From the IMG/VR virus record IMGVR_UViG_3300033074_000233, positions 128,001-192,000 of that record: DNA of 64,000 nucleotides; one strand, written 5' to 3'. Origin of the DNA: a virus (Duplodnaviria > Caudoviricetes). A program made the position numbers and the translations under genes. The notes beneath the pieces were generated by a model that made no database searches, was not told the DNA's origin, and saw nothing but the letters and a program-made list of their open reading frames with translations. Positions 9,744 through 16,008 of this stretch are shown piece after piece. Positions within the stretch are counted from its first letter, which is position 1; each line of letters begins with the position of its first letter.

Positions 9744-9820
9744 GGGCCTGTAGTTCAGTTGGTTAGAACAGCGGACTCATAATCCGTTGGTCCTCGGTTC
9801 AAGTCCGAGCAGGCCCACCA
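9744..9820 (+). tRNA. tRNA with CAT anticodon, most likely tRNA-Ile2 (lysidine type)
   Basis: Cloverleaf GGGCCTG/CAGGCCC, loop CTCATAA, TTCAAGT, CCA; resembles ileX-type rather than Met. Confidence 0.9.
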
Positions 9821-9838: not shown

Positions 9839-10090
9839 ATGAGTATCGTGCTTATAGGTAGTATCGTGTTCTGGCTGTTTGCCTACGCCTTCACAGGCGG
9901 CTGTATGTACTCGATATACGCAAGGCTGGAACATGAGAACATTAAGCACCCTGTGTGGATTGTGTTTCTCGGTTTGTTTCTTGGCCCAGCGATTCTGCTT
10001 GGCCTCGCTCTGATAAGTATCTTCGCTATAGGCATGGGTATCTGTCAGACTATCATTGATGCGCTCTTTCCAGTGAAATCTGTAAAGTAG
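9839..10090 (+). CDS. Small membrane protein
   Basis: Two hydrophobic segments. Confidence 0.6.
   Translation: MSIVLIGSIVFWLFAYAFTGGCMYSIYARLEHENIKHPVWIVFLGLFLGPAILLGLALISIFAIGMGICQTIIDALFPVKSVK
10080..10089 (+). promoter_or_regulatory. CTGTAAAGTA phage promoter-like motif (also at 15250, 16741, 21228, 29369, 35631, 48574, 53754)
   Basis: At least 8 exact + strand copies, five at gene boundaries. Confidence 0.65.
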
Positions 10091-10101
10091 TGTATACAGG
10101 T

Positions 10102-10395
10102 TTGGGTGTTGTGTGGTCCATGAGTAGGCCTAGTGAGTTCCCAAAGACTCAAGGTACAATGCGAAGGGTGTGCCTGCCTACGAATAACTGTCGCGCCACG
10201 GGATGGTGATCCTTCGGTTCGCCCCGACTAGGCCCGTGAAGGAAGAAGTTTACTTGTGCTAGAAGCCTCGCGTGGGTGCGATGCTCGCCTGTACGGCCTT
10301 AGGGCTATTGGCGGAGGTCCGCGAAATAGGGTCATGTACCCGTGCATGAGTTAGCCTAAGCCTTTTGCTGACAGCCTGGAAAGACAGGCACCTAA
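10102..10395 (+). ncRNA. Orphan structured RNA candidate with tRNA top-half-like ends
   Basis: No ORF; terminal helix 10102-07/10390-95; GCCTG-GAAAGA-CAGGC arm; GGCCTAGT/ACTAGGCC; further hairpins. Confidence 0.65.
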
Positions 10396-10413
10396 TTCAT
10401 CAGGAGTGAAAGA

Positions 10414-10977
10414 ATGTCGGCCATTTCCAAAAGTCCTATCTTTGCGCCTAACGTGACCCATGAAATCTGCATTGATATGGATGGTCCGACAGTGGACCTC
10501 GATGGGTACTTCGAGCGCCTGTTCGGCACGTCACTCTGGAACATGACAGTTGAGGAAAAGCATCGTCATTGGGACGAAATGTTTGAGCCGGAATGGTTCC
10601 TTGAAGCCCCAATGAAGCACGACTTTCCTGTACTGATAAAGTTCATCCTTGACAACTTTACGCACGTCCGTTTCCTTACTGCTCTGCCTCACCGTCGAAA
10701 GGATAAGGCTTGGCAAAGCATGGTAACCAAGATTGCGTGGATACACAGACACGTTGGTCACCGTATACCCGTGACGTTCGGTCCGTATGCTGAGGACAAG
10801 CAGAAACATTGCGGTGGTCCTACGTTTGTACTGATTGACGACAGAAAGATGAACATTGAACAATGGGGTGCTGCTGGCGGTATTGCTATCTACCACACTA
10901 GCGCACTTGAAACCATTGAGGCCTTAGCTCAGTATCTGAAAGTAATTGCAGAGCGTCAGCCTTTTGGTAGACGCTAA
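10414..10977 (+). CDS. 5'(3')-deoxyribonucleotidase, HAD superfamily
   Basis: IDMDG, FLTA, K..WI, VLIDD..NIEQW..AGG..I.H. Confidence 0.85.
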   Translation: MSAISKSPIFAPNVTHEICIDMDGPTVDLDGYFERLFGTSLWNMTVEEKHRHWDEMFEPEWFLEAPMKHDFPVLIKFILDNFTHVRFLTALPHRRKDKAWQSMVTKIAWIHRHVGHRIPVTFGPYAEDKQKHCGGPTFVLIDDRKMNIEQWGAAGGIAIYHTSALETIEALAQYLKVIAERQPFGRR

Positions 10978-10983
10978 AGTTTC

Positions 10984-11059
10984 GCTGGCATAACTCAGTC
11001 GGTAGAGTAACTGCCTTGTAAGCAGTAAGTCGCGGGTTCGATCCCTGCTGCCAGCACCA
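10984..11059 (+). tRNA. tRNA-Thr(TGT)
   Basis: Canonical cloverleaf, loop CTTGTAA, CCA. Confidence 0.95.
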
Positions 11060-13039: not shown

Positions 13040-13348
13040 ATGACGTTTCCTATTCCCGATGACCAACTTGAAGCCGAGGCGCGCAAACTGTTCAACCCTG
13101 AACTGATCTACGCTGTCACAGGTGCCCAAGGCAAGCAACTTGGCCTTGTGATAAAGGCTTTCACCAAGGCTTGGTTCACGCCTGAACACTTCAACCACTG
13201 GTGTGTTACAGTGGGTGAGGAACTGGTACATAGCACCTTCAAGGAGTGGTGGGCTAAGGAGTCGAAAGACCCGAACAGCGAACTTATGATCGGATTCAAC
13301 ATTCACGCCGAGAACATGCGAAAAGGAACTACGAAACATGACAATTAA
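13040..13348 (+). CDS. Hypothetical protein
   Basis: 102 aa ORF overlapping the rtcB start. Confidence 0.65.
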   Translation: MTFPIPDDQLEAEARKLFNPELIYAVTGAQGKQLGLVIKAFTKAWFTPEHFNHWCVTVGEELVHSTFKEWWAKESKDPNSELMIGFNIHAENMRKGTTKHDN

Positions 13349-14531
13349 AACGACCTTTCAAGGACACGAGGTTCCTGTCTTTGCTTGGACGGAGGATATT
13401 GAATACTCCGCGATAGAACAGTTGCTGAACCTTAGCCGACTTCCTATCATGTTCAAGCACGTTGCTGCAATGCCTGACGTACACATGGGCGTAGGGGCCT
13501 CAGTAGGAACCGTCATTGCAACCAAAGGCGCTATCATTCCCTCGGCTGTTGGCGTAGACATTGGCTGTGGTATGATTGCAGCCAAGACAAACCTCAACGC
13601 GAGTGACTTACCTGACAATCTACACGCGCTGCGCCATAGCATTGAGCGTTCCATTCCACTAGGTGCAGGTGGTGCGAACTCTAAGGAGTCCGAAGACATT
13701 CGCAAGCCTTGGATGGCAAGCCTTGATGCCGACCACGAAATACTTATCGCTTTGCATCCTGAGTTGAAAACGAAGTACAATCCAAGACAGCAGTTGGGAA
13801 CGCTGGGCTCAGGCAACCACTTCATAGAGGTCTGCCTTGATACCAATGACTCCGTCTGGATAATGCTTCACTCAGGTTCGCGAGGTATCGGCAATCTTAT
13901 TGGCCGCGCTTTCATATCCAAAGCCAAGAAGTATGCTGAGGAGTTTGAGATTCACTTGCCTGATCGTGACCTTGCGTATCTGAATGACGGAACAAAGGAG
14001 TTCGCCGAGTATGTCTTTGCCTTGAACTTTGCTCAAAGGTTCGCAGAGATAAACCGTGAGGTGATGTTTAGTCGTGTTATAAAAGACCTTACTCACTTTA
14101 TGAAGCGTCCTGTAGAAATACTTGGGCACACGGTCAACTGCCATCACAACTACTCCACCATTGAGAATCACTTTGGTGAGGACGTATGGATCACCCGTAA
14201 GGGTGCGGTGAATGCAGCTAAAGGAACTTGGGGTATTATTCCTGGGTCTATGGGCACTAAGTCCTATATCGTTGAAGGCAAGGGTGAAGAAAACTCCTTC
14301 TGCTCTTGTTCGCATGGTGCAGGACGTAGAATGTCCAGAGGAGACGCAAAGCGCAAGTTTACCTTGCAGGATTTGATTGACCAGACCTCAGGTGTTGAAT
14401 GCCGAAAGGACGCTAATGTGATTGACGAAATCCCAGGTGCGTATAAAGACATTGACGTGGTAATGGAAAACCAATCTGACTTGGTAGACGTGCGCGCTGT
14501 TTTGCGTCAAGTCCTTTGTGTGAAAGGGTGA
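13338..14531 (+). CDS. rtcB: RtcB RNA ligase
   Basis: MPDVH, VGVDIGCG, LGTLGSGNHFIE, LHSGSRG, HHNY, RKGA, PGSMG, SHGAGR, DEIPGAYK. Confidence 0.97.
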   Translation: MTIKTTFQGHEVPVFAWTEDIEYSAIEQLLNLSRLPIMFKHVAAMPDVHMGVGASVGTVIATKGAIIPSAVGVDIGCGMIAAKTNLNASDLPDNLHALRHSIERSIPLGAGGANSKESEDIRKPWMASLDADHEILIALHPELKTKYNPRQQLGTLGSGNHFIEVCLDTNDSVWIMLHSGSRGIGNLIGRAFISKAKKYAEEFEIHLPDRDLAYLNDGTKEFAEYVFALNFAQRFAEINREVMFSRVIKDLTHFMKRPVEILGHTVNCHHNYSTIENHFGEDVWITRKGAVNAAKGTWGIIPGSMGTKSYIVEGKGEENSFCSCSHGAGRRMSRGDAKRKFTLQDLIDQTSGVECRKDANVIDEIPGAYKDIDVVMENQSDLVDVRAVLRQVLCVKG

Positions 14532-15486: not shown

Positions 15487-15519
15487 GCGCCCGTGGCTCA
15501 GATGGATAGAGCAACGACT
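15487..15519 (+). pseudogene. 5' half of a disrupted tRNA-Arg-like gene
   Basis: GCGCCCG-TG-GCTC-AGATGGATA-GAGC-A-ACGAC; A20 Arg identity element; argU-like. Confidence 0.85.
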
Positions 15520-15534
15520 ATTTATAGGCTATCT

Positions 15535-16008
15535 ATGTGGAAGATTGAGAAAATCGTCAGCAAGGGTGCCTATAACTATGCTGTAGTTAGAGATCATCCA
15601 AATGCAATCAAATACGGATACGTGTTACACCATAGGATAGTTGTAGAAAATCACCTTAAAAGACTTCTGAAAAGAAATGAAGTAGTACATCACATAAACG
15701 GAAAAAAGAAAGACAATCGCCTTAAAAACCTGAAGGTTGAGGATGCTATAACACATGGCAGACTACACGGAATTGAGCAGGGTCGCTTATGGGTAAGTCT
15801 TAGATGTCCTTGGTGCGCCTGCACTTTTCAGCGACCTAGAAACACAACTCACTTGCAGAAGCCCTCAAATCTGAAGGTAACGTGTTGTGGTCCGTCGTGT
15901 AGAGGAAATTTTTCTAGGTACGTTCAGTTGCACGGCAAAACCTTGAGGCTAAAATTAGCAGTTGATGCTAATGTTCAGAAAATATATCGAATATATCAAA
16001 AATTATAG
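15535..16008 (+). CDS. HNH (homing-type) endonuclease
   Basis: HP....GYVLHHRIV.E.HL.R.L...EVVHHINGKKKDNR..NL; C-terminal CPWC...CCGPSC. Confidence 0.9.
   Translation: MWKIEKIVSKGAYNYAVVRDHPNAIKYGYVLHHRIVVENHLKRLLKRNEVVHHINGKKKDNRLKNLKVEDAITHGRLHGIEQGRLWVSLRCPWCACTFQRPRNTTHLQKPSNLKVTCCGPSCRGNFSRYVQLHGKTLRLKLAVDANVQKIYRIYQKL

Follow-up and report, generated by a model that had tools for sequence, protein, structure and literature searches.

What is encoded in the longest stretch of a large phage genome that holds no open reading frame (ORF) of at least 60 amino acids? This stretch, positions 10091-10413 of the 64,000 nucleotides (nt) analysed here (hereafter the window; positions 128,001 to 192,000 of IMG/VR record IMGVR_UViG_3300033074_000233), is the longest of its kind anywhere in a 216-kb phage record that is estimated to be 84% complete and whose cultured relatives are distant (DNA ligases at most 27% identical). 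An initial annotation had described it as an ORF-free gap in a tRNA region and had inferred a structured, separately transcribed phage non-coding RNA there, possibly undescribed. We confirmed the gap and its setting, and found that relatives and covariation support a conserved, structured, non-coding RNA on the plus strand, with a conserved body at 10124-10392 and probable ends at 10095 and 10395; that it is separately transcribed is unproven. Judging from sequence comparison, the RNA is real and appears to stand for a structured RNA family that has not been described before and that has so far been found in a single clade of large, uncultured tailed phages. Its kind, assigned by analogy, is that of an orphan phage tRNA-region RNA.

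DNA searches for full-length homologs in cultured phages recovered the 3' hairpin alone, and pattern searches of IMG/VR and of metagenomes, as well as protein-guided IMG/VR scans, gave nothing or chance matches. As DNA searches gave no homologs, we located them by following neighbouring proteins. Close homologs were found in loci L166 and L167 (mutually identical), L168 and L173, and in a variant contig of run X10 (a single contig at 3x depth); a distant homolog is present in L175-L178, where the protein beside the RNA is 43% identical. The full set comprises six distinct, related sequences: the window and five metagenomic relatives. The L175 copy is detected both by a profile of the close copies (E = 3e-17) and by a covariance model that covers the 5' half and draws on four close copies only (61.7 bits, E = 3e-15). 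Between the window and L166, 76 of the last 77 nt of the RNA are identical, while the next gene has substitutions at 54 of 188 third codon positions. The homologs share no conserved reading frame. One contig of run X14, which is only guessed to be an RNA run, is identical to 10175-10401 and is treated as a lead only, not as evidence of expression. In a relative that is 98% identical (L169:2296-2400), just the initial 89 nt of the RNA are left (10090-10178). This remnant runs, through a microhomology, into the central part of an HD-domain gene, which points to a deletion or a misassembly. Since the joint has microhomology and may be a misassembly, this locus does not establish that the RNA is dispensable.

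Although the RNA is real, the fold listed for it in the initial annotation is mostly wrong, even though every sequence word quoted there lies where it was placed. The minimum free energy of the window's sequence equals that of shuffles (z = -0.04), so that a single sequence supports no particular helix; z of about -2.2 is reached only by L175 and by the 5' domain. Taken as a whole, the proposed structure is paired in 78.7% of cells over four related sequences, which 95 of 500 shuffles equal. Helix 10127-34/10227-34 loses three of its eight pairs in relatives, helix 10295-307/10352-62 collapses, helix 10332-38/10343-49 loses one pair in two strains, and a GCGG/CCGC helix is broken. An outer, acceptor-like stem keeps 3-4 base pairs (bp), but its remainder is broken and there is no covariation. 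An alternative pairing between loop 10140-45 and the leader (10101-10106) has one compensatory change (L166/L168/L173) but is absent from L175, and is thus a pseudoknot of close relatives only.

In a revised fold with 69 pairs, every cell (100%) is paired in the four close copies, and four changes are two-sided. Adding the distant copy breaks none of the 32 pairs of the 5' half, of which 13 show changes on both sides; pairing again reaches 100% of cells. The fold opens with a three-way junction (10124-10181), in which a closing helix (10124-29/10176-81) with one-sided changes only surrounds two hairpins (10134-51 and 10152-75) with seven two-sided changes and a near-invariant loop (10158-70). 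A 22-nt core (10176-10197) is identical in all six sequences and has several competing partners. Next comes a hairpin with a conserved A/GG internal loop (P4, 10197-10238), which shows six two-sided changes and whose pair 10204/10230 changes from U-A to C-G in X10. It is followed by a long arm (10239-10364; 10239-59/10344-64) bearing a cap hairpin (10265-84), an insert (10285-10315) and a further hairpin (10329-41). Pair 10256/10347 of this arm varies between G-U and G-C, and pair 10270/10279 changes from G-C to A-U in X10. Because X10 also replaces the UUAG loop at 10299-302 by GUAA, this region is a local hairpin and not part of the long helix originally drawn. The insert is exchangeable: it differs completely among the window, L166/L168, L173 and L175, and always folds. 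By hand alignment, L175 has all the helices except the innermost P4 hairpin (10214-27).

The six sequences also permit four further, partly exclusive pairings: 10164-70/10210-15 (5-7 bp), 10164-70/10188-95, 10177-82/10271-76 and 10188-92/10370-74. In the first of these, the UCCUUC of P4 (10210-15) is a candidate kissing partner of loop 10164-70. Covariation cannot choose among the four, because the letters involved barely vary; they may be tertiary contacts, intermolecular contacts or two states of a switch. A helix 10189-95/10366-73 is a further candidate.

The 3' end of the RNA consists of a portable module (10369-10392) in which UGACA is followed by a 5-bp stem with a GAAAGA loop and by ACC, about 21 nt in all. 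The initial annotation had taken 10374-89 for the T arm of a tRNA top-half mimic. The hairpin is indeed kept among homologs, with a U-A to G-C change in L173, but it is not a T arm, as its 6-nt purine loop is not a T loop and it is a widespread stand-alone element. An exact search with 22 nt found 30 IMG/VR loci with unrelated upstream sequences, and a pattern in which the middle stem pair was left free matched at least 120 stretches of bacterial genomes from many phyla; the two letters left free form a Watson-Crick pair in 101 of 110 copies. A tRNA lies within 400 nt of 41 of 141 module copies, on the same strand in 39 of those 41, and 12 of the 141 end no more than 30 nt before a tRNA start. 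NCCA follows the module in only five of 122 unbiased copies. Among cultured phages, the module is present in mEp390 and in Ralstonia, Cronobacter and Stenotrophomonas phages. In the lambdoid phage mEp390 it lies in the early leftward leader (L188:1100-1780), which is long, structured and mostly non-coding, and which also holds looser variants of the module. HEARO-like elements in L046, L077, L081, L095, L108 and L137 end in the module as well; most of them apparently lack an IscB gene.

From the unrelated upstream sequences, the spread over many phyla, the tRNAs on the same strand, the HEARO ends, the mEp390 leader and the rarity of NCCA, it follows that the module is a strand-specific, portable RNA signal and not a private T-arm mimic. 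It may serve as a processing or protein-binding mark. General pairing of its GACA with upstream sequence was considered as well and is not supported across copies. Like lambda boxB and the HK022 put RNA, the module is a small hairpin that occurs in phage leaders and has a purine loop resembling GNRA, but it differs from them in its spread over many phyla, its occurrence inside tRNA arrays and its lack of the two-stem put fold. Our search of the literature found nothing relevant on this hairpin, which may be among the unnamed candidates in the supplements of PMC5737381 and PMC10690425.

The explanation that we favour, while giving it somewhat less than an even chance, is that the element is a stable phage non-coding RNA cut from a tRNA-operon transcript and acting in trans as a scaffold or decoy. 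It starts from what we observed: conservation, a secondary structure, the module and the genomic context. Transcription would start at the phage promoter box or farther upstream, at the promoter of an operon, the RNA forming the front part of a nucleotidase-tRNA transcript. The three-way junction and the long-armed domain would then be held in place by contacts between loops in which the invariant nucleotides take part, the portable hairpin would mark or protect a processing site at the end, and the body would be released as a stable RNA. Once released, it may engage an RNA-binding protein or a nuclease, of the host or of the phage, as a scaffold or decoy, a trans action that we liken to that of the tRNA-island RNAs GOLLD, ROOL and manA. 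Because no terminator was found 3' of the element, and because L175 has no promoter box directly upstream of the RNA, the RNA is either cut from a longer transcript or acts in cis. Release is favoured because the gene immediately downstream changes between lineages (it differs in L168 and L175), because four close relatives of the downstream nucleotidase gene (NT5C; L042, L043, L044 and L185) lack the RNA in the DNA examined, and because no expression platform was found.

Several points weigh against release and action in trans. Only six distinct sequences are available and they are related; their alignment was fitted to the structure, so that shuffle counts are not probabilities, and for L175 the 3' half was placed manually. 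Several of the conserved pairings are mutually exclusive. The NT5C gene is always present within one gene downstream and a ribosome-binding site (RBS) lies about 10-15 nt after the RNA, an arrangement that also fits a leader acting in cis. The role proposed for the RNA is moreover a prediction from sequence, and the analysis identified no partner protein.

As NT5C always lies within one gene of the RNA, the main rival is a cis-acting leader, either a riboswitch-like switch or a put/nut-like antiterminator, controlling the nucleotidase-tRNA operon; we regard this as possible but doubtful. Its ligand, bound by the invariant core, would be a nucleotide or else RNA polymerase, and its two states would be the competing pairings, which are conserved in all six sequences. 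The position directly before an RBS in every case suits such a leader, as does the module in the mEp390 leader. On the other hand, we found neither a terminator nor a helix that would hide the RBS, and the four RNA-less NT5C relatives are hard to reconcile with a leader of this gene. The put RNA is a two-stem RNA of about 70 nt (PMC9378689), unlike the element; a put-like antiterminator, which has an A9-G35 platform and lies just after an early promoter, differs in overall fold, a distinction drawn by description only.

The core and the competing pairings could alternatively define a novel type of phage RNA, catalytic or ligand-sensing: a ribozyme or a nucleotide sensor tied to the operon that serves the phage's tRNAs and nucleotide salvage. 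The cross-phylum hairpin at its end would then be a general and hitherto undescribed signal for processing or antitermination in phage tRNA arrays. We consider this reading unlikely.

Descent from a known RNA, in the form of a domesticated and degenerate HEARO/omega RNA, permuted transfer-messenger RNA (tmRNA) or group I intron, is quite improbable. HEARO (RF02033; the omega RNA of IscB) is of similar size, and some of its members share the module end; however, RF02033 does not match the element at E <= 10, and our models of the element (R2 and R3) do not match the HEARO elements at E <= 1. Genes for RRXRR, TnpB zinc-ribbon, IscB/IsrB and reverse transcriptase were not found in the genome, although these absences are not final because the genome is incomplete, and the element has no IS605-type ends. 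Model R2 weakly matched a permuted tmRNA (10.6 bits, E = 0.16), but the match was gone with the better model R3; ARAGORN and RF00023 give nothing at the element that would be a tRNA-like domain with T arm, G3-U70 and CCA, and the frames in which a tag might be encoded differ among homologs, none being conserved. The group I intron was rejected, as its P/Q/R/S look-alike words are out of order, a P7-like pairing is displaced by the compensatory pair 10204/10230 and there are no flanking exons. Short words in the sequence do resemble what we take to be HEARO features, group I P/Q/R/S elements and a tmRNA resume context.

We consider it very unlikely that the element is a ribozyme that cuts itself or a tRNA precursor and whose ends are joined, possibly into a circle, by the phage RtcB encoded 3 kb downstream (13338-14531). 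A compact invariant core among covarying helices may be typical of catalytic RNAs, and RtcB is close by, but no Rfam ribozyme family matches, we see no evident cleavage site, and many such phages encode RtcB (704 records).

Least credible is the top-half mimic of the initial annotation, a substrate for RNase P and CCA addition with a large insertion: in every copy the two ends can form 3-4 bp that stack on the terminal hairpin, and three of the six sequences end in ACCA, but in place of a 7-bp acceptor, a 5-bp T stem, a 7-nt T loop of the usual consensus and NCCA there are a 3-4 bp stem that does not covary, a 6-nt loop and, in the window, ACCU, and the hairpin occurs alone in unrelated contexts, rarely followed by NCCA.

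A search of the window, L166 and L175 with the Rfam 15 covariance models found no match at the gathering threshold, and at E <= 10 gave only noise of at most 13.4 bits. The initial annotation had seen no signatures of tmRNA, RNase P or introns. Resemblances to RNase P, the signal recognition particle RNA, the cobalamin riboswitch, twister and pistol were seen by eye only and have no Rfam support. Readings as a small ORF or a guide RNA failed, and the genome that carries the leader holds no target for it. The scarcity of ANGGA loops led us to drop the idea of a CsrA sponge.

At most, the element works in the manner of GOLLD (RF02032) and ROOL; it is a member of neither. Both are phage-encoded RNAs of unknown function near tRNA islands, held together by kissing loops (PMC12286853). 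The element shares the location, lying between tRNA-Met and tRNA-Thr, is multi-domain and may likewise be stabilised by kissing loops. It does not match either family model, and at about 290-320 nt it is below 550 nt and far shorter than these RNAs (about 660 and more than 800 nt), with another fold and a portable hairpin at its end. The short manA and EGFOA motifs are reported to form RNA-only assemblies (10.64898/2026.07.01.735769). They differ from the element in length (less than 200 nt) and fold, and do not match it at E <= 10. Stable RNAs are also found in phage tRNA clusters, as in the case of T4 species 1 and 2 RNAs and the phage Y RNA (YrlA), and manA is linked to phage tRNA genes. 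The element differs from the T4 RNAs and YrlA in having no canonical T arm plus CCA; there is no Rfam match to Y RNA, and a Ro60/TROVE gene (PF05731) was not found in the genome, an absence that is again provisional given the incomplete record.

Orphan RNAs of phage tRNA regions have recently been found to build unexpected RNA-only structures, and their functions are not known. The present RNA is a tractable case: its size allows synthesis and probing, its fold is backed by covariation, its core is invariant and can be mutated, and its insert is exchanged in nature. The occurrence of its module in cultured phages makes the module testable now, and phage tRNA operons may use it as a general signal.

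The box, the nucleotidase gene and the two flanking tRNAs described here are on the plus strand. The RNA sits between an 83-amino-acid ORF and an NT5C-like 5'(3')-deoxyribonucleotidase gene with its RBS (10402-10977; PHROG 2643 match, E = 5e-21). Upstream is tRNA-Met (9744-9820) and downstream tRNA-Thr (10984-11059), which probably shares a transcript with the RNA; the tRNA nearest to the L175 copy is 3.2 kb away. The box at 10079-10089 is a genome-wide repeat that also precedes tRNA-Pro (15249), and may be a promoter. Its 10-mer has 14 exact copies in the genome (0.55 expected), and 13 copies in the window when one mismatch is allowed (about one expected); the copies lie mostly ahead of genes or tRNAs, and the box is retained in L166, L168 and L173.

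We also noted other features of the window and of related loci. A 118-nt tRNA-like RNA with a T arm and CCA (window:15365-15482) is missed by ARAGORN and by the Rfam gathering threshold, and weakly matches the tmRNA model (21.4 bits). An ORF for an HNH endonuclease (15493-16008) stands just before window:16007-16132, where Rfam (40.7 bits), though not ARAGORN, finds a tRNA, followed by an apparent 3' half tRNA remnant ending in CCA. In L175 (5998-7314), eleven units of about 36 nt, made of two alternating short repeats with spacers of about 9 nt, are followed by a 299-amino-acid ORF with a weak match to the IS110 family (PF02371); this locus looks like TIGR-Tas (PMC12045711), and tblastn found no homolog in the genome of the window. 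Genes of the Acb1 (anti-CBASS) family lie near the NT5C gene in L175 (5301-5783) and L185 (8211-8669). In a related large phage (L044:325-1926), a permuted tmRNA precedes a 1.3-kb stretch in which no genes are called and structured units recur.
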